A stretch of 63,987 bases of DNA, counting the filler, from Vezdaea acicularis (taxonomy: Eukaryota): NCBI GenBank assembly GCA_026025075.1. It is 4 parts of 4 records of this genome, joined end to end, with 100 filler letters (N's around TTAATTAATTAA, not from the genome) between each part and the next. Parts side by side here need not be neighbours in the genome. Positions count along the whole stretch, not along the records: positions 19,482 to 38,687 come from JAPEUI010000203.1; 3 more parts are not named here. The stretch is one strand, 5' to 3'. Position numbers and translations under genes: made by a program. Below the pieces are notes generated by a model. That model saw nothing but the letters and a program-made list of their open reading frames with translations, searched no databases and was not told where the DNA came from. Each line of letters opens with the position of its first letter. Position 1 is the first letter of the stretch. This document shows, piece by piece, positions 1 through 58,042 of this stretch.

Positions 1-3000
1 ATGCTTCCTCGTATAATGGTGTCAATTTCTTGTTTTGTGCGAGCAAAACTCCCAAGCTGTTTTCAGCAATTATCTCCTCTTTTGTTTTCTTCATCAATAT
101 CTGCGATTTGATATCTTCCTGGTTAGAGAAAATTGATCTGACCTCTTCATCTTCACTATATTCCTGGGTTTCATAGTGGCCTTCCAGATCATCACGCCCC
201 ACGGAGTCAAAATCTAGTGCTCTGGACGGTATTGTTGCATGAGAGGAGAGTTCATCGTGGGTCATGCTACCGTAACCCGAATCAGACCCGGCACGGACAA
301 GACCGGCCTCTAAGGTGGAGCTATGATCATCCAAGTCAGAACCAGCATGGACAGAAGTGACCTCTAAGGCGGAGTCTGCAAGGTCCTGAGATGTTGTAAA
401 CTCTTCTCTTGAGTAAGAGGCTCGTCGCTTTATCGCCTGAGCCTTAGCTAACTTATCCTGGTCTGCATAAAGAGTGCTAAGCTTATTGTGTACATCAATC
501 GTCAAAAGGTGATTAGGACCGAAGACCTTCCCGTATCCTATCAGCGCTCGCTGATACATCTCTCCGGCCTCGGCTAGCTTGCCTTGATCACTATACAGAT
601 TACCCAGAGCTTTCATTGCCTTCAGTGCCGGAGGATGATCCGGGCCCAAAGCTCTCTCGTAACCCCTCAACGCCCGCTGAAGCATCGCTTCGGCCTCAGC
701 CAGCTTACCTTGATTGCTGTACAGTAGACCTAGGTTGCTGGTTACATTCAGTGCCGAAAGATGATCCGGGCCCAAAGCTCTCTCGTAACCGCTCAACGCC
801 CGCTGAAGCATCGCTTCGGCCTCAGCCAGCTTGCCTTGATTGCTGTACAGTATACCTAGGTTGCTGGTTACATCCAGTGCCGAAAGATGATCCGGACCGA
901 AAGTTCTCTCGTAACCGCTCAACGCCCGCTCAAGCATCGCTTCGGCCTCAGCCAGCTTACCTTGATTGCTGTACAGTAGACCTAGGTTGCTGGTTACATT
1001 CAGTGCCGAAAGATGATCCGGGCCCAAAGCTCTCTCGTAACCGCTCAACGCCCGCTGAAGCATCGCTTCGGCCTCAGCCAGCCTGCCTTGATCGCTGTAC
1101 AGTAGACCTAGGTTGCTGGTTACATTCAGTGCCGAAAGATGATCCGGGCCCAAAGCTCTCTCGTAACCCCTCAACGCCTGCTGAAGCATCGCTTCGGCTT
1201 CAGCCAGCCTGCCTTGATCGCTGTACAGTAGACCTAGGTTGCTGGTTACATCCAGTGCCGAAAGATGATCCGGACCGAAAGTTCTCTCGTAACCGCTCAA
1301 CGCCCGCTCAAGCATCGCTTCGGCCTCAGCCAGCTTACCTTGATTGCTGTACAGTAGACCTAGGTTGCTAGTTACATTCAGTGCCGAAAGATGATCCGGG
1401 CCCAAAGCTCTCTCGTAACCCCTCAACGCCCGCTGAAGCATCGCTTCGGCCTCAGCCAGCTTGCCTTGATCGCTGTACAGTAGACCTAGGTTGCTGGTTA
1501 CATTCAGTGCCGAAAGATGATCCGGGCCCAAAGCTCTCTCGTAACCCCTCAACGCCCGCTGAAGCATCCCTTCGGCCTTGGCCAGTTTGCCTTGATTGCT
1601 GTACAGGAGACCCAGGCTGTTGATTTCTTTCAGTGTCGATGCAAGTATCGACACATTATTGGGACCCACGACTCTCTCATAAGCCTCCAATGCTTGTTGG
1701 TATATCTCTATCTGAAAGTCTGAATAAAGATCCTTCGGAATACTTCTAACGTAGTCTGCTGTTGAGGCATGGATCAAGCAGATTATGTTACTCTTTCGCT
1801 CAATATGGATTAAGCCGCCGCAAACCGTCAACAGAGTCTTCTCATCGAGAACATCGCCTTCCTCTACTCGACTTGCTCCGGGATTGACAGCTAGGGCATG
1901 TTGAAGCTCGCGCACACTTAGAGGGGCCTTGGCTAGCGTAAGCAAGTATATAACCTTCATGGCGAGCTGTTGATCGTCCTTCTGTTGAGCCTCAATTTTT
2001 TTGAAGGCTTCATCATATACTTCAACCATATTAATAGGGAAGTCCTGCGGAACTTTGAGCACTGCATTCCAACTGTTTTTCTCTGATGACGAGTCCATAT
2101 GCAACCGAGCTAGATGAGTTCTGGCAGAAAAGTCAGATGGCTTTTGCTATGGATCCATTTGCAGTGGTAGAAATAGGTCAGATTTTTGATCTGCTTGACA
2201 CTAGCACAGATGGATTGGAGGATACGTACTTTCCTTTAGCTTTCTCCGAGACAGACTCTAAAATCCTATCTCTAAGAGCCGGTGTTGAATGGACAAGACG
2301 GACAAGCTTAGGCGTTTGAGAGATTTTTGCATCCAAATAATTCCGTATGTCTTCATCACCGCTTGCAATAATTTCCAACTTTTCCATATCTGGGAACCTT
2401 TCTTCAATATGAATATTAGGTGTTGAAGTTAACAAAAGTCGTGCATTATCAGCCAAGGCTCCTAAGCATTCAAGCAACTCATCTCGAGACCTGTTCTCTT
2501 CACAGCATTCATCCAGAGCGTCTATGACAATGAAGACGTTGGTAAAGCTAGTGATTATTGATTGAAACACTTCTGATAACTCGTGAAGCGTGGGACGAGT
2601 TTTGTTCAAAGAGTGAAGTTTGTAAATGCTCGCTAGATTATCCAGTACAGAAGAGTTCTGCAGAGCAAGTTGCTGGAGAAGACTGCCAATGAGATTGACG
2701 GAGGTCTGTTCGGTTTGCTCTTTATAGTTGAGATAGATGTAAGCTATTCCAGTGTTCGTGCTAGTGTATTCCCTCTGCAGATGATCTATGACAGTCGCTC
2801 TATTAAAAGGTTTGAGATTATCATTATTATGCAAAAAAGGGGACAAAACCTTACGCAATAATTGTTTTACCAGCACCGGCTAGATATTCCATTAGCAAAT
2901 ATCGAGATAGTAAATATGATGAGAGCTTGAACTGACGCAATCCCAGACACCAGAGAGCCTTAACCTCTCCCTGGAGCCATTGAATGAATTGTGCGGACTC

Positions 3001-19381: not shown

Positions 19382-19481
19382 NNNNNNNNNNNNNNNNNNN
19401 NNNNNNNNNNNNNNNNNNNNNNNNNTTAATTAATTAANNNNNNNNNNNNNNNNNNNNNNNNNNNNNNNNNNNNNNNNNNNN
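19382..19481. other. Artificial contig linker (N44-TTAATTAATTAA-N44)
   Basis: N-run with a 12-mer that gives stops in all six frames; identical to the two other linkers. Confidence 0.98.
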
Positions 19482-20012
19482 GTAGCATTCTCGCCGGACG
19501 GCAAGCTGGTCGCATCGGCATCGTGGGACGGCACGGTCAGGCTCTGGGACGCGGCCACGGGAGCATCGCTGCAGACGCTCGAGGGCCACTCGGGCTGGGT
19601 CCAGGCCGTAGCATTCTCGCCGGACGGCAAGCTGGTCGCGTCGGCATCGTGGGACCGCACGGTCAGGCTCTGGGACGCGGCCACGGGGGCATCGCTGCAG
19701 ACGCTCAAGACTGCTAATACTATTCGACAGCTATCATTCTCTAATAATGGTCAATATCTAGACACGGATGTGGGACAGTTAGGCATCGACTGCTCTTTTT
19801 CTAGTATCATTTCGCCTCGATCAATGTCTGTAAGGGAAAGGAGAATATATGTAAACGGGACTTGGGTGGTTCAAGAGAAAGAAAATGTTCTTTGGCTTCC
19901 TTCCGATTATCGAGCGATATGTACGGTTGTCCGGAACAATGTTCTAGTGATAGGACATGCATCTGGTTGTGTTTCTATTCTTGGATTCGATGTAGCTGAG
20001 CCTAGCATCTAG
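19482..20012 (+). CDS. C-terminal WD40 repeats of a HET-E/NWD-like NACHT-WD40 NLR, 5'-truncated
   Basis: Frame reads [42 protein letters not shown], then a near-identical second unit, then the typical NWD tail [15 protein letters not shown]...VLWLPSDYR...VIGHASGCV. The NACHT part is inferred, not seen. Confidence 0.88.
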
Positions 20013-21660
20013 GGATATTTCTTCGGCCGCCTCCCCACCCACCTCCATTTCACTTAGCTGCCTTATATATCCTTTGCTTTCGAAATGCTCAGCCTTGAAG
20101 TGTTTTGCTTTGAAATGCTCTGCGTTAAAATGCTCTGTTTTGGAATCCTTCGCTTCGAATCCATCGCTTTGAAATCAGGTTAAACACGCTTACGCCAAGT
20201 GCTGTTGTGGTGAGTGGAAATGCGGCAAGATGGCAAACGTAAAAATCTTTGATAACGGCAGCTTCTGATGTACACATACATGGTCGAGCAAATGCGCCAA
20301 ATTCATCTGTTCTCTTCAGCCTGCCGGGCAACAAATTCTACGCATATGATCTTTGTCCATTTCAATCATCGACTCTCCACGCTGCTGAAAAAGCGCGCGC
20401 CCTCTCTCTCAAAACAACAGAGCTCAGATTCCACCATTCTAAGTTATCAGTCGTTACGCCTCATATGACAATGTCATCTGGCCTGATGTTTCTATAAACT
20501 GGTGGGAACCGTGTGTTCGCAAACACGTCATCTATACTCTCGTCGCCGTCCTTATACTTAAAAGCGATACAAGCGGATTGATGAATCGAGAGCCTTGTTC
20601 TTTCGAAGATCCGCTTATTCATTATAGTTCGATCGTGTCTGGCAATTAGTAACGAGACACGGTGCTACTAGAGGAAAGTTGAGAAGAAGCTTGATGTGCC
20701 GCGTTTTGAGATAGAAGCGGCGGGTTCACATCTAGCTCGCCAATATGGACAGTTCGACGGATAGAAAAACCGAAAGGCGCTTCTCAAGGCATTGAGTTAA
20801 ACGTCACCCTGTAGAGGAGGAATGGAGATTCCCCGCGAACCCAGTGGCCAAGCGTCTTCTTTCTCCATCTTTCAAGCCAGAACCCACCTTATTCGCCCAT
20901 GTAATCTCAGTCTCCGTCATGCCCTCCCGACAAAGATAATTCAAAAGTGGGCTCCCGGCCCATGTGTCGCAGTCTAGGCCAAATTCGATGATCTTTTGGT
21001 ATATAAATCTCGCAGGAGTATCTCCCAGTGTTCGTAGTAGGCCTCGCTTTCGTAGTCAGGATCAGGTGAACGGGACGATCTGCCATAGATCTCTCCGGCT
21101 AGTATATTATCTTCCTCGTCAGTGTTGAACCCTGTAATCATGTCCTTTAGAACTGCAAGTAGGCTAGAGTGGGCTTTTAGATCCTACTAGCGACCAAGAG
21201 AAGATTGTGCCATGGACTCGAGCTAGCTCGCAAGCATCATCTCTGCCGTGTCTATTTAATATCTTTTTCCACGTCTAATGATGTCGTGTGCAACCTCACT
21301 CGCGTCCAAATGTCGACAGGCAGAGAGGAACATTGCATTGTAAGGCGAAGAGGTCCAACACCGTCAAGGTGAGAACGTTGCCGCCGAAATCAGGAGCGAA
21401 GTCGGGCAATACTACAGCCAGAGTCCTAAAGAGAGGATTACCGCCAAAGGTAACAGGCATGGGTGTATTCATGGCTGGTGAACAGCAAGGGGAGGCCGAA
21501 GTACTGTTTATGACCGCACTCCCTGTCATATGAGACGTATCGTAGAGTGGGTCGTACGCAGGCGCAGTTGTGGTTTACAGGGTCGGAAGGAGGGCAACAA
21601 TTGATGTTGTTGATGTTCAAAAGAGCAAGGGTAATGGAGGACGATCAGTGATGTCAATTG

Positions 21661-21775
21661 GCGGCCAAGATTGGCCGGCCAAAGTTGGCTTGGCCAGCAG
21701 ATCTGGCCAATTAACATGGCCAAGTTTGGCCTGGCCAAAGGGTAGCCAGGCCAAATGGCCAAGTTGGCCAAACAG
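21661..21775. repeat. Cluster of GGCCAA/TTGGCC short palindromic motifs (second small cluster at ~21932-21960)
   Basis: About ten GGCC-centred motifs within ~115 bp. Confidence 0.7.
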
Positions 21776-23367
21776 GGGTCCTAATCCGGGTTAGCGTGTT
21801 GCCCATAATATTTAGCTGGATCAAAAGGGGGCCAATTAGATTACTTACATAGAAAATTTCGAGTATCTGCCCCGGAGTGGCGCTTTAAATAGAGATATCT
21901 GATTGGGCATTAGCGTGGAACTTAAACTTATCGGCCAATTGGCTGGCCAAAAGTGGCCAATTGACAACGCTGCAGGACGATGGGCGGTCGCTAAACCGCA
22001 TCGTGGCATTCACCGGCAAGATTTTTACAATCTGGGCAGCTGACATTTCAGCATCGATACCGGCCGATAATTGGGATGCTGCACCCGTAACCTCCAAAAT
22101 TCTCGCAGACATTAGGCTATCACTTAGTAATCATTTAGTTTCTCTGCATATCCAAGTCCAGTGGACTCTCTCCTTACGTCCAAATGTATATTCGTAAACG
22201 AACGATCAAGGCGCCTTTCTCTGTAGATGAAACGACAAATCACTTTCACCGTCTTAAACGACCATTTCTCTTCAGCATTTTGTCTTAGACACTACTCCAT
22301 TAGGGAAGGGCATCTTTCTGGTGAAGCTGTTGCTTTCATTGATGCTTGGCATCTGAATTGGCTGAAGAATGTCTAGTTGCCAAAAAATCTCATCATATCT
22401 TCAATGCAAAGTGACGACAATCATGTTCACACTGAATTTGCCAATCTGCAGGTTATGGAGCCTGGCTACCTGTATAATTTATAGATTCTCCTAATTGCTG
22501 TAGGAACCGGAAGCCTGCTCCTAACGTGTTGGTAAGCATCCATTCTGAACCATCAAACCAAACCAACGCCTTGCTTTGTAGTCTGTCACACATGAGGTTA
22601 CAATCTTTTGAAGTGTTGATTATGCCTCCCAACCGCGGTTCAGTTAATTACAGCCGGCATGTTTTGGCGACGCGGCTTGGAATGAATACTTACTTGACTG
22701 AACTACGGAGCATCAATCAATTAGACAGTTAGGCAGGCCCAAAAATCTGCAGATTACGAGCATAATTCATTCAATTATGACTTATCTTACATCTTTAATA
22801 ACAGCTGCAATCCGCAGATTGTGAAGCCTCTTTGCGTCACTACGGCTAACCCCATATCTTTCCGATTCCTCGTAAAAAAGTCTCGCAGCACGTGAATGCC
22901 ATGTGATCTGGACAATTCTACATCACAGTCTTAAAGATACAGGGTCAATTCATCGATTTTATGGAATAAATCCCAGAGGATTGAGATCTCCGCAGTCAAG
23001 GTCTTCAATGCTGTGTACCCCCCCCCCCCCCTTTGAACAACAACGGCGTGGCCACAACTACGACATGAGTTTGAATTAAATGAAGAATAAGATTGACACC
23101 GAAGTGACATCCAGAATTTGAGGTTTTTGGTGCTATTTTAGAGGTCCCCTCGTCCTGGGTGCTACTACCATAAATTCAAAATTCGGAAAATTGTAACCAT
23201 TTCGCTTCTATCTTGCATTCAACACTCACTTCACAGCGAGCTGCCGCTCATTCACAGTCACAAACTCATGACCTAGTGGTTGTAGTTTTTATAATCAAAA
23301 GATTTCTTGAAAGTAAATATTGGGTCTCAGTTAAGTAACACGAGATGTACCTTGCTTCACTTTGAAT

Positions 23368-25538
23368 CTACGCCATTCTTGGTCTCTTCGACACGGATTC
23401 ACCAACGACCGAACTATCCTCCTCCACCCTGCGTTTCGCCGTGCTCTCTGCAAAGTCTATCTCGAATTTCTTCATAACCTTCAGAGTCATGTTGATGTGA
23501 GCAAGGCTTATATCCTTATTTTGGCTCACTGCTAGCGCACAGGCCGTCCGTACAATGTTCTTGATTTGCCGGCCATTGAGATTCTCATTGGCCAACTTGC
23601 CGAGCGAATCCGTATTCACCCAACCTAGACTGGATTCTGGGGATGCCTTGAATATGAATGTGTTCCATAAATTCTTACGGGAGGAGTAGGAAAGAGCCGG
23701 ATATTTGACGGCAAGATGAATCCTAGACTTGAAAGCTGCATCAAACGAGCCGATGCGATTAGTGGTGAGGAATATGATACCCTCGTAGTACTCGAGGATG
23801 CGCAAGAATACTAGCCCAGCATCAGACACCTATTCTTTGAGTGGTGGATGGAATGCAACGATACCTGATACAAGACCATTTCTTTCAAGATTATTGGCAG
23901 TACGCTGCTCAAGGAACACATCTGCTTCATCGATAAGTATTATGGCATTCCAGGTCGTCGCTAAATGAATTGCATCTCCCAATCCCTGCTCCACTGAGGA
24001 TGGTGAGGCTCCGAGGTCACCAGAACTCACTACATAAAGAGGTCGCTGGCAGAAGTCTGCTACGCTTTCTATATCACAGTCATCGGCATGTAAGAGCACG
24101 TTCAAAGATATTATCACGTACCGGCGGTAAGCGTTTTGCCAACACCTGGCACACCGTGAAGCAAGAATATCATACCTCTCCCCTTGCCTTTGATTACATC
24201 GTCAAACAAAAGTCTTTCGTCTGTATGTACCTTGACTAGAGAGAGGATCATTTGCTTTTGCTCCTCTTCAAGCATCAAAGCCTCGAAGGCTTTTGGGTCA
24301 TACTCAACATCCTTGATCAGATCTACCTGAAAGAAGCACCATTTTTTATCGGCAAGGGAGAATCCAGACATCAAATGATGACATATAAGGTAATCATCAT
24401 CTTGGAGACGCAGGTGATCCTCGGTTTTCGTTCGGATGATTCTCCCTGTGCTTAGCAAGTAAGGGCAGTGAGATGGTTTCACTAAGGCGAAGGTTTTCGC
24501 ATCAATCATGACGCGACCTTTGATCTATTTAAATTAGTTGCAAAAGGGAGGCCATAGAACAAATAGACACACCAACGTAGATTGCAGTGCAAACTCATCC
24601 TCTTCACCATAGATTGAAGTTATTCTGTCCGGCGCTAGCGCTTCTGCAATACCCTCATACATCCGATGGTGAGTTCCGTGCAGGCCAATGAATATTTTGC
24701 CTCTTGCTATCATTGATTCGACGATGGAGCCCCTGTTTGGATAATATTGAAGAGGTATGACGTTTAAGTCCTTTAGAGCCTTATACCCGTTGTACGGGAG
24801 GATGCTGAAACATTCCCTCGCACAGCCAAAATCTGTCCCGTCATAATTAATGTATTCTGCGATGATAGTCCATTTTGAATCCCAACACCACGGAATCGGG
24901 CACTTGCACCTTGTCATCTTTTGGAACTTCAGCACACGTTCTGTCTTATCCGTCTTTGTGTATACGTATTCTCCTGGTCGAAACACCATCCACAGGTTCA
25001 GGAAGTCAATACTAGGAGAGATAGAGGCTGTTTCGACGAGATTGTAATAGCTGTAAATCTCGCTCTGCAAAACTTTGTACATGTATTTGAGAGCGAATAC
25101 AAGATGCTTCACAGCGTCTGGGTCCTGGAGGGTGCTTCCGTACGTCTGTAACTCTTTGCGGTAATGAAATAAGCATTTTGGATGATCGCGTAAAATGATC
25201 TTCTCGGTCCGAAGGTTAAGCTCACGATATTCAGGAACAATCTCTTTAAGAGCGGTTTTGACATATGGTGATCTAATTTCCAACTCTGTGTATTCCAACT
25301 CTTTTTTTTTGTCATAGAACCTAGTCAAGACTAAAGCAGACTTATGTGCCCTGTCTTGTGGAGGATTCAACACTTTCCTTGATCCTACGTTCAAAATTAC
25401 TCTTTCTTGCTTCGAATTGTAGCGTGCTTCAAATGTCTTGAGCTCACATTCCAGACCTCCTTCATCTTTTTCTTCTTGTTCGGCATTTGCTGGATAGAAA
25501 TCTTCAAGATTTTCGAAAGTCCATTTATCTGCCTGCAT
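23368..25538 (-). CDS. Fungal-specific AAA+ ATPase
   Basis: Four exons: ...LEIRSPY...LWMVFRPG..., IKGRVMID...GKGRGMIFLLHGVPGVGKTLTA (Walker A), ESVAD...ILIDEADVFLEQR (Walker B), VFLRILEYYEGIIFLTTNR...AFKSRIH...LNGRQIKN. Start approximate. Confidence 0.92.
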
Positions 25539-26487
25539 GACGGAATTTATCTGAAAGAGATTAGCCAAGAACAAATATGCGTCATTAAAAAGACAACGAA
25601 AGATCTCATGTTGAATATTGAAGCTTGATTAGCTTGCAAGCTGAAAGCGTGGAAAAGCCATTGGTCCAATGTCCTCAGCTTTACACCAGCCTCAAAAGAT
25701 CGAGAGCACTTTACACGACTTTGGGCTCTAGTATGATGGTCCCTTCTCCATCCCATTGAAGAAATGGGGAAAAGAAGCAAAAGATACGCTTGTTGAAATA
25801 AAAGGCAAGCCCAAACCACATTGCAAGATTTAAATAGATGCTTAGAATAAGGCTTTGAATGCACCTCGTTTGCGTTCTGTAGAAAAAATAACCTGAGCTT
25901 CTCACATTCAATATAGGTTATGCTTTCCCGCTACGTTTTGGGGTTCTATTGCTTGCACATTAGGCACAGTACATACTATACTAGGTCAAACTTTTAGGCC
26001 CCCTCTACAACGAGTCGAGCTTGCTGCCCTACCGGAGAGCGAAGTAGGCTGATAGATACGTAAGGTGTTCGGTCATGTAGTAGGACTAGGGCCTACGTTT
26101 GTAAGTAGAGCACGTATGTATAGGTAGAGGCAACAGAGTCTCATTATCCGGTCCTATTCATAGGATTTTGGCCACAAGCTATTTGATGCTAATCTCCTAA
26201 AGGATTCGGCCCGCTATTTATGTTTTGGTTCTACCACGTGACCTCGCCTCACCCCTCTCCCTAACAAGTTGCATAGAAGACCTAAACTTATGACTAGTGA
26301 TGGTACACTGTTGTCTTCTAAGGGCGAGCATACACGCGCAAGAAAGGATGTTTACTGGAGGTCCTGATGGCAGGCAACACAAGTTCTTTACAGTACAACG
26401 TTTTAAGCAAGCAGATTCAAATATTTAATAAATAGCAATATGATAGGAGGTAGTGAGATGTAATACATCAACAGGTACCCTTCAAAA

Positions 26488-26900
26488 CTATCCAAGAATA
26501 TGGCTCTGAGTTTGTGAACCTATCTTGCTTCCTTTGTCGTCATGTTCAGTGTGACGAACGCTTGAATCATCACGCCTTTGATAGAAGGTTTGATTGGTGT
26601 CTCCATAAGGTGACATCCTTTCGACAGCTCCAATGTTCTGATATGGCTGATCACGCATCGTTTCTTGGTGCCAGCGCTGCATCATAACGCTCGCTGGGTC
26701 TTGCACATGCTCATCTACAGGCTTAGGGCTAGCTTCTCGCTGAGCTTCTTTGCCCTTGATCCATTCACGTTGCACACTAGTATACATCGTGCAATTGCTT
26801 TGGCCTTCCTGTGGATATGACACCTTTCAAATGCTAGTTAGCTTAAGAAGCATGCAAACGAAAGGGCACTGGGTACAACACATACCTCTTGCTGCGGCAT
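26488..26900 (-). CDS. Small hypothetical protein (~116 aa)
   Basis: ATG 26900, 15-nt exon (MPQQE), canonical intron 26885-26824 (GTATGT...GCTAAC...AAG), in frame with the 26823-26488 ORF. Confidence 0.6.
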
Positions 26901-27842
26901 CTTGATACTATTTCTTTTCAATTTGCTCGACAGATCGGATTTGAGCATCGTAGTTCTAGACTATAGCTAAAAATTTCTGGAAACCTATCAATTATTGGCG
27001 CTGAAAGCATAATTATAGGGTTTCAGTAACTACCGTTGAACCTTTGAAGGCAGAAAGCTGAAGTTGATATACGTTTGTCTGCTGTCTAGCTTGTTTATGT
27101 GCCTCTGAGAATATCCATTCCAAAAAGAGCAGGGCCCATTTATACAGGAATTTGTCGGGGGGACCATCGCTGGTACTTTTGGGAACTCTTTCGGGCGACG
27201 CGTGAGATGCCATGTTTGCACTAACAAGGCTGTCATCTGAAACCACGCAGATACGGTCATGGAAGGATTGATCAGTGAACAGTAAATGAAATCAAGTTCT
27301 TTCGAAGGTCTTTTTGAGATCTTTTGAATGAACTTTCCGATTGGCGACCAAGCATTCTGAAAGCTCATAGACAGGGCTAGATCAATCGACCTAGCTCAAT
27401 GCATACGTGTTGCATCGGACCCCTGTACTGTTAAAATCCTGCCTGCTGTAGCAAGTGGATTTGTGTCACATCCAACCATTGCCGGTGAGGCTCTTTCGAG
27501 GAACTTTTGGGGGTAATCTTTCTGCCTTCTCGATCCTGAGGGCGCGGTAAGCGAACCTTGGTGCGTGGGGCCAAATGGGAACTTTTGAGGACAAAGGATC
27601 AACTTATTATTGCAGACTAGGGTCCCCCTGCGCACTAAAATTTCAGCCAAACGAGAAGCTCTACTGTAGGCTAGCATAATCTACACTCATCTGCCACTAA
27701 CCGGAAAAGTACCATCTGCACGGGTTTTTCACTAGCATCAGTTATCAATAAGCTCTTACGGGATTTTCAATTTGACCTGAGATATAAATGTGAACACTCC
27801 AGTTCAGATATCTTTGCTCCCAGAGGAAAATCATCAATCAAA

Positions 27843-30014
27843 ATGTTACCTCGTGCACCTCCGGAATCACAGCAGGATGTTCGCGTGCACAGCACTAAAG
27901 ATAGCTGGCTAAGCGGTCAGCGCACTGCACACACCACTTTTGCGCCTTCCCCGAGCTCCAACATGTGGGCCGATGGCATCGGGGATCAATCTCCTCTATA
28001 TCATCAGCAAGTCTCTTCATGTCAAATCCAGCCTATGCATTATCATACTATGGCCAATGTATGGTCCGGAAGTCCCGATTTTTTGAGTGAATTCACCATA
28101 CCAGTGGCACCTACAATGTCTTTGGCCTCTATTACAGAATCGGCTCTTCAGTCTTTGCAACATAGTCCAGCTGCGGATAAACCTCAGCGTCCAGCATCAG
28201 GCACGAAATTAAACCGGCCGCGACGAAAGCAACTAAATTCGCGGCACCCTCAATATACGGCAGCAGAGTGGGACAGCTACCGCTCGAAGATCAAGGAACT
28301 TTACATTGATCAAAATGCATCGCTTGAAACGACAATGGAGTCCTTGTCACAGTCTGGTTTCAGTCCTTCGTAGGTCTCCTTGTGCTCTTTCAATTTAATC
28401 TAGACTAGACTACTGACTATTGGAGAAGCAAAAAAATGTATAAAGTCAAGTTCAAGGAATGGGGATGGTCGAAAAATTTGCCCAAGGATAGAGCTCAGTG
28501 GATGCTTAACAGGGCTGAACAGAGAAAACGTCAGTACCCAGAAGGAAGAGATCTAATCTTTGAATTTGGAGAACAATCATGGACAGTAGAGAGGGTCCGA
28601 AAGAGCATTCGAAGAGCAAAAATTGCTGAAGATGAAATTGTTGCTTTAGGTATGTTGCTCGTGATAGTTATTTTGTTTCGCTGATAATTCAATAGATGCG
28701 CCCACCCCATATGACATAACCTACAAACTGTCTCATCATGTCTCCCAATCACCACGCAACGTGCATTCTCCCAATGGGTCTGATGTTCTTGCCGGAAGAT
28801 GGACGCCTGCGCCATCTTCAGGCAAATCTCAACTCCATTTTCTTCAATCGAACTGGAACGGTCACACGCTGGCAGAGATTGAAGCTATCAAGCGTGAGGC
28901 TCATCGGCTCGACTGCGAACGTGATGATGAAAATGCCGAGAAAAGGTATCGCGAAGCTTTGGCTGGCTTCGAAAATCTGCTCTCGCCGACTCACGAGAAC
29001 ACAAACGCTGTCGCGTATCAATTGTCAATTTTCTACGCCGAACATGATCGTATGGATGACGCTGATCTAGTTCTTAATTGGATGGGCGAAAAGCATGTGG
29101 AACGCTGGGGTCTCGACCATCAGAAGACCATGACACATTTCCTCCGTGTAGCAGAGCTGTTCAATAGCTGGTCTCGCAACGACGAGGCAATAGCATTTTT
29201 GTATCGGGTTCTTGATGCCTGGGATAAACACATTTCCGTGAGTACAAGCGATAACACCACACTGAACCGCAAGCCACCTCAAGTAGCTCAGCCTCAAGTT
29301 GCCTCGCCGCAAATAACCGTTCGACAATCTGAACCTAGAGACATGACTAGAGCTTTCACAGAGACAGACAACCCTACGAGAGTAGATTACCAATTAGGCC
29401 TTGCAAAGGCGCACATTACAACCAAAGACAAGACAACTGAACCGCTACTCCTCCGCTTGATTGAGCAATGCAAAAAATACCCAGGAAAGTTGAACTCGCA
29501 GATATTGCAAGCCAGGTGCGAGCTTGTGAATCTCTATCAGCAACTCGAAGATGACGAAAAAGTGGCCAACGCTCTAGAGCAAGCACGAAAAGACTTGGAG
29601 ATGATATTAGAGTCGACTGTCAAGAAAACCGAGCCTTTACTGGAGGCGTGTGTCAAAATAGTGAAGCTACATGTTAAGAACGACTATTGCCAGGCTGCTG
29701 AAAACATGTTCCAGAGGATCGGAGGCGAAGCAGAAGATACTCTAGGGACAGACCACGAAGCCACAATTAGAATTCTAATCCGCATTGGTAAATTCTATCA
29801 AGGTGAGAACATGTGGACTAATGCACAGCCTTGGTTCGAACGAGCGCTTGCAGCCTCAATGACAGCTAATGGACTGGAAGATGCAATGACGAAGAGGCTT
29901 GAGGCAGCTCTTGAAAACCAGCATTACACTGTGACCGCACTAACGCACGAGGAGCTGGAGTCATTTGTCGGCTCTGACACATTTCTTGAAATACGTTGCC
30001 CTGGAGATGATTGA
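27843..30014 (+). CDS. Clr5-domain protein with C-terminal TPR-like helical repeats
   Basis: Clr5 motif EWDSYRSKIKELYIDQNASLETTM...GFSPS|KKMYKVKFKEWGWSKN across an intron. The third exon has TPR-like AEKRYREALAGFENLLSPTHENT and LGTDHEAT...AQPWFERALA. Confidence 0.85.
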
Positions 30015-30605
30015 GAAGCTCAATGATGTTGTTGATGTGTCCGGCACTAGCCAGGCCCTTTTCTTCATGATGATTGAACTCGGAGCCGTATTTTACGCTG
30101 AGATATGTTGTGCAGTGATAGGTAATAGTTTTAGAGATCTATATTATAGTGTAAGCGGCATCAATACATGCAAGTCAGACTGACAGCGCCTCAATTTCCC
30201 GTTACCGGCAATTTTGCTCCCTCACCACGATCTTATTCAGACTAAAGACGTTCTATAAAAGGAAAGAAGTAAGGGCGAGAGTGAGTGATAGTCAGTCATC
30301 ACTTGCCAAACTCTCAGCACGCTAGTCCCAAATGAATTGACCGCCGTAAAGATTGCAACAGAGACTACGTGAGATTTTTATATGCCCATCTTAATTAAGT
30401 GAAGATCGACATATCTTGGACCAGACTTGTTGACTCAAGTAGTTCAGCCTATTAGTCCAGTCTAGCTAAATGACTTGTTGACTACTGATAGCCTTGTTGG
30501 TAACAGCCTTCTTTTGTCTATAGATAATAGGCGTAGTCGTAGAAACAGTTTAGACCCTGCGCTAGCTATTCCCAATCATCAATCTAGTGCGAGCGCTCCA
30601 GCTTT

Positions 30606-31351
30606 TTAAAGCCTGATGGCATCATACACATTCGCCTTCTCATGCCTCATCGCCCACCAGCCAATTCCAGCAGCCCCCACGGACAATATGAAGAAAGGCA
30701 CGAGCATCCACCGAGCAGCGGTTTCCAACTCACACTGCTTGCGGAAATCTCCTCTAACCGGCGCCAGATCGCACGTCCAGGTTTCCAAATCGAAAGTTCC
30801 GTCGGCATAAGGTCCATACCAGAGCGCGAATGCATCCCAGTCTTCAGGATGGAAGTATGCAGGGCGCGCATGTATGATAAAGATGGCCAAAAGTGACGCT
30901 ACTGACAGGATAGCGGTGAAAGTAAGAGTTGCTGGAAGCGCATATATTGGTGTGATTTCGTACGTCTGCGGCACGCCAGCGGCCGAAACACTAGATAATA
31001 AGTCTTCATTGTGGAATATCTATACCATTTTCCATTCGGCCGTAAGCAAATTGTGAAGAGCAACACCGTAGCACCGACGATCAAGGATATGATAGATATC
31101 GTACGAACAAGATGAGATCTTCAGTATTCAGATATGTCGGCAGATCACGGACCTCCCCATTACTGTCAGAAAGGAAGTTGCTGCTTGTGGCTTGAAGCGC
31201 TAAGACAACGATAGAACGAGCCGTCGTTGTCGAGAGCAATGTCGTAAATATCCTCACTGGCAGGCTTTATAGAAGACTGCGCGGTCCTTTGCGACCCCGT
31301 AAGCTTCTTCGGGTTTGCTGAGGAAGACAGTGAGGCTTTTCTAGGTGCCAT
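30606..31351 (-). pseudogene. Probably disrupted small membrane-protein gene
   Basis: The 3' part has hydrophobic helices and GTFDLETWTC...KQCELETAARWML. Upstream of 30974 the frame contains an in-frame TAG and hydrophobic segments shift frame; no convincing intron rescues it. Confidence 0.4.
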
Positions 31352-31872
31352 ATTGCTTGGAATTGTGGTGAGGGAATTTATGTGAAGATAGCAAGATGAG
31401 GAAGGGGAGACGTGTGCCTTCTTATAACTGTCTTCAGCCAAAGGATTCGACCTTACGCAACACAAGAGAATGTCATATGCCATCAGGTGAGGCTATGTAT
31501 CCTGGTCCTACCCTTGCCCTCCTTCAGCTTGCGACGACAAGGCCTCCCGGTTGTATGATCCACGATCTGTAGGATTGGATGGCGATGCATGCTGGGGATG
31601 TATCCCTTGAAGTTCTGATGCCACGCGTCTTCAACTCCGATGCACGCATAGTCATAGCAAGTTCCGCTGCTGCGCTATTGCAAGAGCAGTCGCTCTTTGG
31701 CTTATATTGGAGGCATGAAAGCAATTTTGACTCGCCGACAACTCAGCAGTCCACCGGAGAGATGGTCAGTCTCCCTCGCCCCCTGACGAGAGCTCCCAAG
31801 CTTAGGCGAGGCATACACTGTGGCCTGCGACTTGAGGGCAAAGAAGCTAGGGGCCCAATTGCGTGCAGCCGT

Positions 31873-33143
31873 TTAGTTGGCTCTGGTGCATAGCACTAGC
31901 AATGCCACAGACGACTCGTCCACGGTTCCAATATCTTTTGCTGGCTCATATGCAGGTTCCGCAGGTGCCTCGTCCACAGTTTCCGTTTCCTCTGTTAATT
32001 CATAGGCAGATTCTGCGAGCGCCGCATCTACGTTTCTGATTCCCTCTGCTGGCTCATATGCAGGTTCCGCAGGTGTCTCGTCCACAGTTTCCGTTTCCTC
32101 TGTTAATTCATACGCAGGTTCCGCGAGCGCCTCATCTACGGTTCTGATTCCCTCTGCTGGCTCATATGCAGATTCCGCAGGTGCCTCGTCCACAGGTCCC
32201 CTTTCCTCTGTTAATTCATATGCAGATTCTGCGAGCGCCTTGTCCACGGGGTCAATCTCTTTTGTTTGTTCTTCTGTAGGCTCCTCTAACATGTTACCAA
32301 ACGACTTCTTATATCCTTGCATTGTAAGTGGCACACCATAAGGATATGAGCATGAGCTGCCACTTCCACGAATCCAGCCAAATGTATCCGAATGATCGTG
32401 GAAGCGACAAGCCCCTCCTAATTTAATAGACGATGCGTCCGCCTGACCTTTTTGGATATGCTGAAAATAGTCCCACCCAAGGTCTGGAAAATCGTAAAAG
32501 ACCTTCTCCCATTCAGCCCAGTGCTCAGTTGGTTTATTTCGTCTTGACCAAGACAGACTGCTGCTGCCATAGTTGACTGCAAACCCTAAAGAGAACATCT
32601 GCCGTAGGGTTGTACCAGCTGGAACACTGCTATAAACTGCTGTAATAATCTCTGGTGTAACTCTCCACCGGTTATCACTCAAAGCTGTCCGTAGAACATC
32701 GGAGGTCTGGTTCTTAAGATAACAAATGTGATATTTCTCGGCGAAGATAGCTAGATCAATGACAGATTCAATGTCAAAAATAGGTATGCATGGTTCAAGA
32801 GCATGAAGCCAGATGAAGAAGTTGGCAAACGTTACTGGCTTTTCCTCAGGCAGCTTGATGGTTCTCTCGATGGATTCTTTAAACGGCGGGTGGCACATCG
32901 TTTTAAAAACTGAAGAATGCTGTATCAAGAGTTCTTGTGGCACTTGAAAGGACATTTGTGCGGATCCAATAAGGACTGTAAAGCGATCACTTTGCATTGC
33001 CCTATTCAAGTCACTCAGGAAGAACGAAGGATTAACTCTTAGATTACTAACTTGACGTAGATGCATCGTCGTATCTCTGATTCAGACAATACTACAACCG
33101 TGTCAGGAACAGCTTGTAAAGCTTTCTTCTTCTTCTTGTTCAT
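31873..33143 (-). CDS. BTB/POZ-domain protein with acidic repeat tail
   Basis: FTVLIG...FQVPQELLIQHSSVFKTM...FKESIERTIKLPEEKPVTFANFFIWL...LAIFAEKY...LKN; CRFHDH. A short first exon from ATG 33143 joins through a GTTAGT...TAG intron. Confidence 0.88.
31915..32250 (-). repeat. 54-bp (18-aa) coding repeat, alternating A/B units forming a 108-bp dimer x3
   Basis: (T/P)VDEALAESAYELTEETE alternates with TVDEAPAEPAYEPAEGIR; DNA match at 108-bp offset (31973 vs 32081). Confidence 0.9.
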
Positions 33144-33792
33144 TGTGCCAAAGGTTATATCTTAAGTTTACTTGACGAAGAGAATAAGGTGCATGTCTTA
33201 TAACAATGATGAAATGGAAAGGTCAGCAAGGCGTAGAGGCTGCTAAATCCTGTGTCGCATATCTAGGGCCTTAAGGCTTGTGACCGGCAAAATAGTTACT
33301 CCAGAACCGGCATTCTTGCAGCATATAAAGAGATCCAAAGTGTGAGTAGATTGTAGCAGCCCCACTTTCAAGGAGCCGTTTCTTTGCGCTGAGAGATTGC
33401 CACCAGGAGTGGCGTTTTTGGCACTCAACCGTCAGGCTCACTATCTCTTTTGATCATGCCGCATTTTCCTGTAGCTGTTGGATTTAGAAGCATCATCGCC
33501 GCCAATTGCACCGCCTCTGCAGCAATTGAAAGTTTTCATTCCAGTCTACATCAGCCTTCCTTTTCAAGGCAGCATCCTAAGTTATCCCCTTTTATGTAAT
33601 CACTTATCAAGCTTGTAGCCATTCAAGACCTTGGTTGACGCGAGGATAAGCTACGGCTTAACCGACAGCGAGCAAACACTAGATCAGCGCCAATGTCTAA
33701 GTCTTAGTTGCACTCTCAACAACAGAATCGGCCCTTCCGTGTTCTATTCTCATCCTGGTACAGTACTACTACATCATAATTGGATTAATGCG

Positions 33793-34268
33793 ATGAGTCT
33801 ACAAGTCATCCAACGGGCCGTCAGCGGCATTGTGCTGAGTCCAGTGTTTCGAGTCAGCATCACAAATGTCCCCGCCGTGGTTCACAGATGGATTACCGCC
33901 AACCCAGGGCAAAGCGCTTTGCTAATCACTAACGGCATTCTGATCTTTACGCCGGCTGCTCTTACAGGCCCTCTCCTCGCAACGATGGGTTTTGGGGCTT
34001 CCGGCCCTGTTGCCGGTGAGGGATCATAGTTAACGTTTGTAGTAAGATCGAGACTAAATTTTGTCGCGTCGCACTAGGCACTATCGCGGCTTGGCTTCAG
34101 TCGATACTAGGAAATGTCGGCGCACATAGCGTATTTGCATATTTACAGAGTGCGGCGATGGGAGGATATGGGGTTGGTACAGTTAATGGGATTGTACAAG
34201 CTTGGGGAATGATTTCGGGAGCCGCTGTTGCGGTGTACCCTAGCCTAGGAGGCCATAGTGTGGTATAG
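33793..34268 (+). CDS. Small Gly/Ala-rich membrane protein, IFI6/IFI27 (ISG12)-like motif
   Basis: Intron 34016-34077; the spliced product has MGFGASGPVAGTIAAWLQSILGNVGAHSVFAYLQSAAMGGYG. Confidence 0.75.
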
Positions 34269-34859
34269 ATCAGCATTTATCAAGTCCTTCTATGTTACTC
34301 ACATCCCTCAAACCGATGTCAGGCTGCTCAAAGAACTTAGACTGGCAAAACTCATGAACAGTCATGAAGCAGTGAGAAAAGGCGATGTAGCGTGGGCATC
34401 CAAGTAATTATTTCAAAAGCGTGGATATCTGAGTAATCTGCCGTTGATTTTTTGACATCTTGGAGTGGTTCGTTTCAGCCCCAAGGGTGGGGCAATATCG
34501 CCGTCGCCAACTGTAGATCTGCAATCATTATCGCTTGATATCCCCTCATTCTAGAATACACATGTTTGTTTGAGAAACTCCATTAGTAGATAGTGAAGAA
34601 AGCAGTTGATGGTAAAAATAGCAGCCGGTTACAAACACAAAGCATTTCGCTGTGGCAGCTTGTCTTGCGTCCCTTTGTCCTGCGGCTATTCATCCTAGGA
34701 CAGCCATTTGCTTTGCTGTTGCTGCTTGCTGCGGAGTTGATTGCTATACCCGGCTGCTTCTGCCTTCTCTTCCTTGTTTAATGTCCATGCTTAGTGTGAC
34801 ACCAGCTTGACCGGCTGCCACAGTGCTGGCTGCTGGTGCTGCCCCAGCTGCTTGTTCTG

Positions 34860-35135
34860 TCAGGCAGCTTGTCCTGCACCAACTGCCCGTTCTGTGCTGG
34901 CTATTTGTTCTGCGCCACCTCCTTGTTCTGTGCCGGCTGCTCACCCTACACTAGCCCTTCATTCTGTGCCGGCTGCTCTTTTTGCACTAGCTCCTCGTTC
35001 TGTACTAGCTGCTTGTTCTTTACCAGCTCCTCATTCTCTGCCAGCTGCTCGTCCTGCGCCAGCTCCTCATCCTCTACCGGCTGCCCATCCTGCATCAGCT
35101 GTTCGTCCTGTGCTGGCTATTCATCCTGCTGGCTT
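34860..35135 (-). pseudogene. Degenerate 18-bp coding repeat (Q-D/N-E-Q/E-L/P-A/V)n with RIP-like stops
   Basis: About 15 hexapeptide units; three in-frame TAG codons fall at CAG (Gln) positions, and many GAC>AAC, GAG>AAG and CTG>CTA changes are present. Confidence 0.6.
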
Positions 35136-36729
35136 TGCGAAAGCAGTTTTTTGTGTAGTTTCTCGCTTTCCTCTGTTCGATGTTGAATGGCCGATTGCTT
35201 GCGTGATACTCACCCATTGCTGTTGTGTGTGAAATACGAGGTATGGCGCCGCAGAGCTAGAAATTTGAGAGGAGGGAGAAGCGTCCTTTTATAGACGATC
35301 GAGACATTGGGAGGCACTACCAATGTCAATGTTGGCTCAGGAGCCGCGGGAAAGACATGCCTGCAACTTCATTCTCCTCGCTGTTGCTTTCCTTCAGCTC
35401 CAACAAATTGCGAAGCTTGCATAAATTGTATACCCTTTGTTGCAGGTTTAACCTCTCGCAAAGCTGTCCACCATGCCTCTATACGCTTTGACCACCATTC
35501 TTCAAAACTATCAATAGTCTACTTTTTACGCTGGTAAGTCCTGATCCCGTCTTGTTTAGCATGATCAACGTGTTGATCATACTCAACAGGAAGGGGAGAG
35601 AGCGGTCTCTGCCGCAATTGTAGACGAGAATGTGATGACAGTTGAGAGATATTGCGATGCAAGTTTCAACGTCTACAAATTGCTGCCCTCATTGTCATAA
35701 ACCCTCCGCCATCCATCGCCACTGTTATAAGCCTTGCCGATCCGTCTTGTCATGGCCGTTCTATTAATTTACCGGAGAATCTTGAGCACTAGTGCAACAG
35801 GGAGAAATGGAGCACAGCCACGTCAACAATACTTGCCATATAGTGAAATCAAAGCAGACACGCAAGACGGAACACCATTGCTATAATGTTCCTGCTCATC
35901 GATTGGATCGGAACAGGTGATGGCCGGTTGATGAAATAGGAAGGCCGCTGTCTCTTCTTGATTTGTGACACCAATGCAGAAAGGAACTTGAAGCTGAACG
36001 CCAATTTCCACTACCCCATCTTCAGTAAAGATGAGTTGTGACAATAAAAGGACAGAGTCGATACAAGATATATGATCTGTGGCTCCAAGGAGAACTCCTC
36101 TGAACCACCACAGCAGTTGAATAGCTATCATCAATCAAGAACGGATGTGCAAGACCAAGAGGTGATATGACGATTTGAAGTAGTCAATCACACGGCTTTG
36201 GAGCGTCTTGTCCTGCCCCCAGTCTATTTAAAACTGTTCCAAGGGCAATAATGACACGATCCGTAATACGACATGAATCTAGGACTCAAAAGGTAACCAA
36301 TGCTTTACTGCATAGCCCGTAGATTCTACAGAAAGAGGGATCGTGAGCCAATAGAGTGGCAAAAATGGCATTAGACTTATCACAACTCAGCTTGTTGCGC
36401 CAGGCGCCTTCCGGGTGAAGCGTCAATGCACAACGTTGTCCATTGAGGATGTGACTATTTCCTCGATCTCCAAAGGAATGCTTGATCGTCGGTCAACATG
36501 GAGGGGCTATTAGTGGAGGCGGAGTTGAGACATGGCGGCAGCGCAGTGCGTCAGGCAGCTTCCAGGCGCGTCCATCGATCTAAAAAGTGAAATGATCACG
36601 GTAATCGAAGTTGTGGATGGTAAAGAGCGAGGGTAATAGAGAACGTTGAGGATTCTAGCTTGCAACAAGGGTTTGAAATAGAGCTGCCTTAGGCCACACA
36701 TTCAAGCCCTCGCTACCGGGACCCACTGG

Positions 36730-36972
36730 TCCTAGGAGAAAATTCCTGGGAAAGCACGGCTCCTAGGAGAAAGCTCCTAGGAGAGCACGGCTCCTAGGGA
36801 AGAAAGAGCCCTAGGAGAAGGTACCTGGGAGAGCACAGCTCCTAGGAGAAAGCTGCTGGGAGAGCCCATGTCCCAGGAGAGAAAGGGTCCTGGGAGCACG
36901 TGCCCTAGGAGAAAGTTCCTGGGAGAAGGTCCCTGGGAGAGCACGGCTCTTGGAAGGGTATTGGTCCCAGGA
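36730..36972 (+). repeat. Cluster of CCT(A/G)GGAGA short direct repeats interspersed with AGCACGGCT
   Basis: More than a dozen CCTAGGA/CCTGGGA motifs at irregular 12-21 bp spacing. Confidence 0.8.
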
Positions 36973-37249
36973 CCTTTGTTCCTGTCTTTATCGTCCCAAC
37001 TGACAGTAATAGGTGCGTATGTAACAGCCTTCTTCTTACTGGTAAACTCACTGTAGTGAGTCCCAGCCTAACACGTACAATGTGAAAATACGGTAGGGGC
37101 CCCACGTACGGTAAGAGTTCAGCTTGGACAGGCTCCAAGAACCTCTACATACATCATTGACCGGCTCTAAGAGACATGCCTGTGTAAGGCAGCAACGTCA
37201 TGTCAATTTAAGCAGAGCATTGCTGGTGAATGCTCAATAGTTGCTGAAC

Positions 37250-37450
37250 TTAGATATTGAGAATCGATGAATTTATTATCTCTTCTGCTCCGCTGCTCAT
37301 ATCACGGTGGTGGTTGGTAGTATCGGCCAGCAACTCTGTCGCTATGTTCATGTCTTCGTTGCGGACAATAATGCTATTTGCTTTGCAATGATTGAGCAGA
37401 AGCTTGACGACCGTCCTGTTCCTTCTAACAGCGGCGTGCGACAGCGGCGT
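37250..37450 (-). CDS. Terminal exon encoding an ankyrin repeat plus tail
   Basis: Directly after an AG at 37452-37451 the frame reads TPLSHAAVRRNRTVVKLLLNHCKAN...ILNI* (66 aa), matching the ankyrin consensus TPLxxAAxxGxxxVVKLLL. Confidence 0.65.
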   Translation of the reverse strand, partial: TPLSHAAVRRNRTVVKLLLNHCKANSIIVRNEDMNIATELLADTTNHHRDMSSGAEEIINSSILNI

Positions 37451-38687
37451 CTAACTATTGTTTCAACGGAGAGATCTGATCAGCTCGGTTTGAGTTCACT
37501 TACAACCTGCAACGGTCAAAGAGGCCGGCGTCAGCCATCGATTCAACGAGAGATCTGCTCAGCTTGGGTCGAGTTTACTTACAAACTGCAACGGTCAAAG
37601 AGGCCGGGGTCAGCCATCGATTCAACGAGAGATCTGCTCAGCTCGGGTTGAGTTCACTTACTTCCTACAACGGTCAAAGAGGCCGGGGTCAGCCATCGAT
37701 TCAACGGAGAGATCTGCTCAGCTCGGGTCAAGCTCACTTACTCTCTGCAACGATCAAAGAGGCCGGCGTCAGCCATCGATTCAATAGAGAGATCTGCTCA
37801 GCTCGGGTCGAGTTCACTTACATACTGCAACGGTCAAAGAAGCCGGGGTTAGCCATCAATTCAACAGAGAGATCTACTCAGAGAGATCGGCTCAGCTTGG
37901 GTCAAGTTCACTTACAACCTACAATGGTCAAAGAAGCCAGAGTCAGCCATCAATTCAACACAGAGATCTGCTCAGAGAGATCTGCTCAGCTCGGGTCGAG
38001 TTCACTTACAAACTGCAATAGCCAAAGATGCCGGCGTCAGCCATCGATTCAACGGAGAGATCTGCTCAGCTCGGGTCGAGTTCACTTACTTTCTGCAACG
38101 GTCAAAGAGGTCTGCGTCAGCCATCGATTCCACGCAGAGATCTGCTCAGCTCGAGTCGTGTTCACTTACTGGCTGCAACGGTCAAAGAGGCCGGGGTCAG
38201 CCATCGATTCAACGGAGAGATCTGCTCAGCTCGGGTCAAGCTCACTTACTTCCTACAACGGGCAAAAAGGCCGGGGTCAGCCATCGATTCAATGGAGAGA
38301 TCTGCTCAGCTCGGGTCGAGTTCACTTACAATCTGCAACGGTCAAAGAGGCCGGGGTCAGCCATCGATTCAACGAGAGATCTGCTCAGCTTGGGTCGAGT
38401 TTACTTACAAGCTGCAATGGTCAAAGAGGCCGGCGTCAGCCATCGACTCAACAGAGAGATCTGCTCAGCTCGGGTCGAGTTCACTTACTCTCTGCAACGG
38501 TCAAAGAGGCCGGCGTCAGCCATCAATTCAACAGAAAGATCCGCTCAGCTCGGGTCGAATTCACTTACTTCCTACAACGGGCAAAAAGGCCGGGGTCAGC
38601 CATCGATTCAATGGAGAGATCTGCTCAGCTCGGGTCGAGTTCACTTACAACCTGCAACGGTCAAAGAGGCCGGGGTCAGCCATCGAT
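37451..38687 (-). repeat. Tandem array of ~80-bp units, each a spliceosomal intron plus a 3-nt microexon (at least 15 units, truncated by contig end)
   Basis: Minus-strand unit GTAAGTgaactcgacccgagctgagcagatctctccgttgaatcgatgGCTGACgccggcctctttgaccgttgCAG-NNN. The triplets lie at 38649, 38569, 38489, 38409, 38330, 38250, 38170, 38090, 38010, 37916, 37822, 37742, 37662, 37583 and 37504 (lowest coordinate of each). Confidence 0.9.
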
Positions 38688-38787
38688 NNNNNNNNNNNNN
38701 NNNNNNNNNNNNNNNNNNNNNNNNNNNNNNNTTAATTAATTAANNNNNNNNNNNNNNNNNNNNNNNNNNNNNNNNNNNNNNNNNNNN
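38688..38787. other. Artificial contig linker
   Basis: N44-TTAATTAATTAA-N44. Confidence 0.98.
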
Positions 38788-57942: not shown

Positions 57943-58042
57943 NNNNNNNNNNNNNNNNNNNNNNNNNNNNNNNNNNNNNNNNNNNNTTAATTAATTAANN
58001 NNNNNNNNNNNNNNNNNNNNNNNNNNNNNNNNNNNNNNNNNN
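57943..58042. other. Artificial contig linker
   Basis: N44-TTAATTAATTAA-N44. Confidence 0.98.

Follow-up and report, generated by a model that had tools for sequence, protein, structure and literature searches.

A tandem array of predicted codon-sized exons ahead of the last ankyrin repeat of a putative NLR-type gene in Vezdaea acicularis

A 63,987-base stretch of the Vezdaea acicularis genome assembly GCA_026025075.1, hereafter referred to as the window, carries on its minus strand a tandem array of at least 15 predicted exons of only 3 nt (mini-exons), which are separated by nearly identical short introns and lead in frame into an ankyrin-repeat exon. The array is located on contig JAPEUI010000203.1 (positions 19482..38687 of the window). 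Judged from sequence, this locus is probably the 3' end of a NOD-like receptor (NLR)-type ankyrin-repeat gene of the kind known from the truffle Tuber melanosporum as 'nank', the short introns of which would be removed one by one. A preliminary description of the locus had proposed that microexons feed in frame into an ankyrin repeat just before its TPL motif and might thereby diversify a ligand-contacting loop, and as a whole this interpretation appears to be largely right.

The array (37504..38687) comprises 14 full units as delimited by cutting at GTAAGT, of which nine measure 80 nt, three 79 nt and two 94 nt, and one further unit, the 5'-most intron of which is cut by the contig end. Since the array runs into this end, the count of 15 mini-exons is a minimum. 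All 15 spacers between the predicted introns are exactly 3 nt long and read, in 5' to 3' direction, V,E,R,L,I,E,P,K,F,V,Y,R,E,F,V. The donor GTAAGT is found in 14 of 14 full units, the branch site, positioned 24 nt before the acceptor, is CTGAC in 13 and CTAAC in one, and the acceptor is CAG in ten units and TAG in four. The combined pattern YAG-NNN-GTRAGT gives 15 minus-strand matches, all of them in the array, and none elsewhere on either strand of the window; likewise, an 18-nt unit core matches 15 times, exclusively in the array, versus 0.10 matches expected from shuffles. Tandem Repeats Finder (TRF) reports a period of 80 for the array and a higher-order period of 319 at 91% matches, and the identity of the units at 38648 and 38329 shows that a block of four units has been duplicated. 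Two adjacent units, 37916-38009 and 37822-37915, have a 14-nt internal duplication (TGAGCAGATCTCT-type) in common, which results in 91-nt introns.

The spacers are near-random beside conserved splice signals. Of the spacer cells, 24 of 42 are non-consensus, versus 59 of 1078 intron cells (Fisher p 3e-18, the copies not being independent), and the mean pairwise difference is 68% for spacers versus 9.3% for introns, where random triplets would give 75%. Within the introns, variable sites are found at one of 13 splice-signal positions versus 26 of 64 other positions (one-sided Fisher p 0.02). The sole variable signal site, CTGAC to CTAAC, keeps the consensus, and C/T variation at the acceptor keeps YAG.

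At its downstream end, the run of at least 15 3-nt exons would terminate in a 53-nt intron, the TAG acceptor of which (37452-37451) joins the last mini-exon in phase 0 to the last ankyrin repeat, just before its TPL. This AG, already singled out in the preliminary description with positions that all proved correct, ends a 53-nt GTAAGT/CTGAT/TAG stretch lying directly before the terminal exon; the phase of the junction and the residue order Y,R,E,F,V followed by TPL had been read correctly as well. The first 42 nt of this last intron are a truncated copy of the array unit, while its last 11 nt are unique. The minus-strand open reading frame (ORF) 37450..37250 that follows comprises 66 codons plus TAA and starts TPLSHAAVRRNRTVVKLLL. 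Its residues 1-25 align with positions 4-27 of the Pfam Ank (PF00023) profile (E 0.0029, 18.3 bits). The mini-exon residues would accordingly be placed at Ank-profile positions 1-3, before TPL of the last repeat, which we take to be the hairpin/loop between the last two repeats, contributing to the binding face. A phmmer search with the terminal exon against 1.84 billion representatives returned 122 proteins at E<=1e-3, and four of the five matches inspected are multi-repeat ankyrin proteins; a word-based search of the 66-aa exon against longer proteins gave 44 candidates, none of which scored. The tail of the exon is 70% identical, over the last 27 aligned residues, to the C-terminus of a NACHT-ANK protein, P0022.

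The ankyrin context upstream of such an array can be seen in a close homologue. One metagenome scan with a degenerate unit pattern retrieved a single contig of 1611 nt, L001, while the unit pattern had 0 matches in prokaryote genome contigs. L001 is 90.6% identical to the window over the 266 nt that extend from the last unit across the last intron into the exon (47 of 53 positions in the last intron, L001 632-684; 88% in the terminal exon, L001 685-822), and 92.6% identical over 108 nt downstream. It starts within ankyrin repeats, and its upstream exon, open in one frame up to position 551, matches Pfam Ank in four stretches with an E-value of 1.5e-26. Thereafter follow a 77-nt unit copy (552-628), the codon GTT (629-631), the 53-nt intron and the homologous exon, which starts APLSHAAV and stands in a frame different from that of the upstream ankyrin exon. 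Removal of the 77-nt and 53-nt introns with GTT kept restores the frame and yields exact 33-residue repeat rows, in which the ankyrin register and motif are clear. In the spliced model, 82 residues align with the P0022 C-terminus at 52% identity and with 0 gaps, whereas one gap is needed if the codon is skipped. As its inclusion gives frame, 33-residue period and gap-free alignment, the single GTT codon of L001 appears to behave as real coding sequence. In the tail of L001, 49 extra bases relative to the window (846-894) and a 9-base indel change the frame of the last ~20 codons.

P0022 itself is a distant relative of 636 aa with NPHP3_N/NACHT, winged-helix and ankyrin repeats. The guess of a NACHT-ANK gene in the preliminary description fits the P0022 domains and the published truffle family. 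Used as query, residues 560-636 of P0022 retrieved 2015 generic ankyrin proteins at E<=0.001 (2286 candidates), while a tail shared at E<=0.001 was common only to P0022 and P0219 among 237 proteins compared. A search of metagenome contigs with P0022 gave 80 pattern matches, none of which was confirmed. Relatives with an intact DNGQTPL-like sequence and no array, which according to the preliminary description would speak against its proposal, were found in part and among distant relatives only: P0022 reads KDENGA and then TAL without interruption, but L001 and a further, more diverged protein match, P0239 (see below), keep the intron/acceptor layout.

The following course of events is considered the most likely for the window copy, provided that it is transcribed and spliced. 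The short introns would be removed one by one through intron definition, each leaving one codon behind. Because every mini-exon is 3 nt long, the frame would be kept whichever downstream acceptor an upstream donor is joined to. Two sources of diversity may then act on the putative loop. In the germ line, unequal crossing-over between the ~91%-identical introns would change its length and sequence, and the number of units indeed differs strongly, with one in L001 versus at least 15 in the window locus, between loci that are only ~10% diverged. In the transcript pool, skipping of mini-exons, for which the truffle genes provide the precedent, might change loop length and sequence as well; by this analogy, alternative splicing of the window copy can be envisaged. 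The loop may contact a ligand.

Several observations weigh against this interpretation. The contig ends inside the array, and the gene's own upstream exons, with the predicted NACHT domain and the open frame expected there, would be located beyond it. The terminal exon alone scores 18.3 bits, below the Pfam Ank cut-off of 21.1, and the usual ankyrin Gly is missing, as the preliminary description had noted for the window exon; it is likewise missing in the L001 exon. With the full set of 15 mini-exons in the mRNA, the loop would be 14 residues longer than is compatible with a canonical repeat. A competing TAG is positioned 4 nt upstream of the proposed acceptor (AATAG|TTAG|), the use of which would shift the frame, and tandem acceptors of the form CAGAG arise at two spacers, which both read AGA. 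In L001, the first intron starts with ATGAGT (552-557) instead of GT, and hence this copy may be defective at its first intron or use another donor. Finally, dN/dS of the exon relative to L001 is 0.91 (12 non-synonymous and four synonymous changes in 46 codons), and the exon has diverged from L001 by 11.6%, the last intron by 11.3% and the downstream flank by 7.4%. With dN/dS close to one and a divergence resembling that of the non-coding flanks, the terminal exon is without sign of purifying selection.

These last values could be explained by a dead or decaying copy, in which a former mini-exon gene has had its unit expanded as a neutral minisatellite while the terminal exon is no longer under selection. 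The sub-threshold Ank score and the missing Gly would agree with such a fate, as would the non-GT donor of L001 itself and the at least 14 extra units that arose relative to the one-unit state at so little divergence. Moreover, changes from L001 to the window are skewed towards G>A (15 versus five A>G), many of them at CpG. High dN/dS is, however, commonly found in NLR sensor domains, and for this reason the value of the exon would agree with a live copy as well. Other features are less easily reconciled with decay: the ORF of 66 codons is uninterrupted, the 15 spacers include no stop codon (expected 43% of the time, as estimated from base frequencies, with a chance rate of about 5% per spacer), and all 14 full units have kept their splice signals. 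Spacers are all still 3 nt long despite intron indels of 1 and 14 nt, and near-random spacers beside 91%-identical introns are unlike the neutral decay of a young duplication. A dead copy is regarded as unlikely, albeit to be reckoned with.

A more far-reaching proposal accepts the mini-exon gene but sees in the array a germ-line diversity cassette with a generator of its own, for which the copied unit would be one intron and the codon would be re-drawn near-randomly each time. If this were true, a mechanism beyond selection on unequal crossovers would be called for, since near-random codons, introns that are 91% alike and a jump from one to at least 15 units would have to be accounted for together. 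Copies of the excised intron might, for example, be concatenated with untemplated junction bases, or the spacer might be a target of directed mutation, and the design would have been kept in several fungal lineages (P0238-P0240, see below). This proposal is considered rather improbable.

Alternatively, the array might be the repetitive interior of one long intron, removed as a whole or recursively, so that the spacers would never occur in mRNA. The last acceptor is open to pairing with every donor, exons of only 3 nt are difficult to define, and skipping of the codon in L001 would keep the frame too. Nevertheless, it is inclusion of that codon which gives the exact 33-residue period and the gap-free alignment with P0022, where skipping requires a gap. 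Spacers are invariant in length and hypervariable in sequence in two independent arrays, and in the truffle precedent mini-exons are reported to be used. The probability of a single long intron is rated as low.

The preliminary description had also raised the caveat that AAC AAT AGT TAG before TPL could be a continuous ankyrin coding sequence (DNGQ-TPL) destroyed by repeat-induced point mutation (RIP), so that TAG would be a CAG codon changed by mutation and not an acceptor. It takes three C-to-T-type transitions (on either strand) to turn D,N,G,Q into N,N,S,stop, and tblastn with P0022 runs four codons past the TAG, aligning ENGA with NNS*; only one of these four residues is identical, though. 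RIP is indicated where TpA/ApT exceeds about 0.89 and (CpA+TpG)/(ApC+GpT) falls short of about 1.03. Over 37250-37506 the respective values are 0.65-0.70 and 1.29-1.45, in the array they are 0.47 and 1.32, all on the non-RIP side, and CpG observed/expected is 1.2. In L001, the APL is preceded by an identical N,N,S,stop, hence the TAG is not a private mutation of the window copy, and both loci contain an in-frame TGA five codons before TPL, inside the repeat unit. Given the negative indices, the shared TAG, the upstream TGA and the weak ENGA resemblance, the TAG is read as an acceptor; the caveat is not supported and RIP as an explanation is very improbable.

The plus strand could in principle encode a repetitive protein, as an ORF of 419 aa (37480..38739) spans the array and no plus-strand frame of the consensus unit contains a stop. 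A search with this translation yielded matches to P0238, P0239 and P0240 with E-values of 7e-60 to 7e-15 (8000 scored candidates). No Pfam family was matched by the plus-strand ORF, however, and its recognition in the atlas comparison, 888 at a best score of 0.82, is far below the 2300 reached by 91 in 100 known-family proteins. Units of 79, 80 and 94 nt shift the frame irregularly, and what is conserved are the splice signals of the other strand, while the database matches would be gene-caller output on contigs where such arrays happen to be open. A plus-strand protein was consequently rejected as an annotation artefact and can hardly be credited.

P0238, P0239 and P0240, which figure in protein databases as 'hypothetical' or unnamed entries 282-398 aa long, are antisense translations of similar arrays with units of ~71-80 nt. 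In P0238, columns touched by the spacer vary in ten of 22 cells versus 16 of 376 elsewhere (p 9e-8), and a single DNA unit is compatible with its three registers of reading, one with GTAAGT, GGCTGAC and the acceptor TAG. For P0240, no DNA unit could be derived in the same way, as its copies are too dissimilar. In P0239, the N-terminus matches the last intron and exon start of L001, read in antisense, over 24 residues (54%); its exon part is identical in eight of 13 antisense residues, and back-translation gives a codon compatible with CAG at the place of the acceptor. On account of this match, the order of array and ankyrin exon is kept in much more diverged sequence. The design recurs in at least three further arrays from environmental or other assemblies.

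Besides these readings, some further candidates were considered for the array. An intron-encoded snoRNA was dropped as no C box was seen by eye, and a transposon was ruled out by eye because the unit ends are not inverted repeats. Spacers as 3-bp target-site duplications were ruled out since neighbouring spacers differ. An Rfam scan of 36500-38687 returned two matches, both outside the array and far below gathering scores.

The closest known system is that of the NACHT-ANK ('nank') genes of Tuber melanosporum, for which tens of alternatively spliced 3-bp mini-exons are described with reference to Iotti et al. 2012 (Fungal Biol 116:261-275) in PMC9815663, PMC4986451, PMC3689799 and PMC13449251. 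According to these papers, the nank genes are fungal NACHT-ANK-type receptor genes with tens or dozens of 3-bp exons in the region of the C-terminal recognition domain, and alternative splicing of the mini-exons has been proposed to diversify this domain; the window locus would be of the same build. At the sequence level, many 3-bp exons are likewise accompanied by canonical spliceosomal intron signals in the window, and ankyrin is found around them (the window exon downstream, sub-threshold at 18.3 bits, and the L001 exon upstream, E 1.5e-26). The comparison draws on the descriptions in the citing papers, and a NACHT domain, present in the distant relative P0022, and splicing are putative for the window locus. 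As far as the kind is portrayed there, it has already been described in black truffle, and the window locus is a real feature of a known kind. A search of the literature on tandem introns, 3-nt exons and introner-like elements in fungi gave analogies only and nothing closer than the truffle case.

Among these analogies, the HIC repeats of fungal NLR sensor domains (WD40, ANK, TPR) consist of near-identical tandem units with few hypervariable coding positions, change copy number by unequal recombination and break assemblies, as outlined in PMC13449251. The window array is similar in having units that are 91% identical with three near-random positions. In contrast, an HIC unit is a whole structural repeat and a multiple of 3 nt, whereas the window unit is a 76-91 nt intron plus one codon, giving lengths of 79, 80 and 94 nt with 3 nt coding. 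Micro-exon genes (MEGs) of Schistosoma likewise possess very short symmetric exons (3-81 bp in the account of PMC10526429). Skipping of these exons keeps the frame and generates protein variants. MEGs have long unrelated introns and encode secreted proteins, while the window carries a tandem array of one short intron in a repeat-domain loop.

Introner-like elements (ILEs) fold stably. For three units of the window and two introns of L001, predicted RNA folds were no better than those of shuffles (z -0.56 to 0.80; window 0.2 to 0.8). As near-identical copies of a short spliceosomal intron, which is how PMC4457414 characterizes the ILEs of fungi, the window introns are alike. ILEs are dispersed in unrelated genes, whereas the window copies stand in tandem in one gene, with all 15 matches of the window in the array and the one metagenome scan leading to the homologous locus only. 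In recursive splice sites (ratchet points) and animal 3-nt microexons, a 3' splice site nearly abuts a 5' splice site, as in the window, yet the animal cases concern one site within a long intron or one cassette exon, as opposed to an array of 15. That 3-nt exons can be spliced is reported, e.g., for Drosophila hth (PMC7392893).

Arrays of codon-sized exons are among the very few proposed ways to vary an immune receptor-like surface of fungi at constant gene number. In the literature searched they are cited from a single species, and the design is rare. The present locus adds the precise insertion point relative to the last ankyrin repeat, a clean comparison of a one-codon state (L001) with a state of at least 15 codons, the statistical demonstration that one-codon exons are near-random while splice signals are kept, and the further arrays from other assemblies. 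From a practical perspective, the antisense strand of such arrays gets annotated as "hypothetical proteins", and the arrays break short-read assemblies.

Table 1 Positions of the predicted features of the mini-exon locus in the window
Feature	Position	Strand	Remarks
Terminal coding exon	37250..37450	-	66 aa; last ankyrin repeat (TPLSHAAV...VVKLLL) and C-terminal tail; stop TAA 37252-37250
Last intron, 53 nt	37451..37503	-	GTAAGT ... CTGAT ... TAG; AG acceptor 37452-37451
Last codon-sized exon GTT (Val)	37504..37506	-	same GTT in L001 at 629-631, between two introns
Tandem array of 14 introns (76/77/91 nt) and 14 further 3-nt exons	37507..38687	-	GTAAGT..CTRAC..YAG
3-nt exons, first seven	38651-38649, 38571-69, 38491-89, 38411-09, 38332-30, 38252-50, 38172-70	-	
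3-nt exons, next seven	38092-90, 38012-10, 37918-16, 37824-22, 37744-42, 37664-62, 37585-83	-	
Artificial contig linker	38688..38787	no strand	44 N + TTAATTAATTAA + 44 N; links separate contigs and does not stand for unsequenced DNA of a single locus

The preliminary description had further assumed that the upstream gene is lost in a gap. While the upstream exons would indeed be located beyond the contig end, the "gap" is an artificial contig linker (Table 1), of which two identical copies occur at 19382-19481 and 57943-58042. Because of these identical linkers, the window is a chain of separate contigs (~19.4, 19.2 and 19.2 kb, and a further one of at least 5.9 kb cut by the window end), and adjacency across linkers is not genomic. 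The locus sits at the end of its contig, and the sequence beyond the linker is unrelated. At its other end, this contig opens inside WD40 repeats (19482-20012, plus strand; Pfam WD40 E 1.9e-27). With WD40 repeats at the start and the mini-exon array at the end, both contig ends are seen as assembly breaks in NLR-typical repeat arrays.

The gene content of the window contigs is of the filamentous ascomycete type, including a chitin synthase and a fungal tRNA ligase, and a TPR-rich NLR-like protein as well as Clr5, DUF7025 and BTB domains are also encoded. ORFs rich in TPR_12/TPR_10 are located at 2-2146 (minus strand) and 28668-30014 (plus strand), one of them with a GPIID winged-helix match; both can be read as NLR-like sensor domains of neighbouring contigs. 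A BTB-domain ORF at 31873-33081 (minus strand) ends in a C-terminal run of AESAYELTEE-like peptide repeats. A second tandem repeat (36730-36940; periods 14/17/31/79, CCTAGGAGAAAG...-type) is found ~300 nt beyond the TAA that ends the ankyrin exon.

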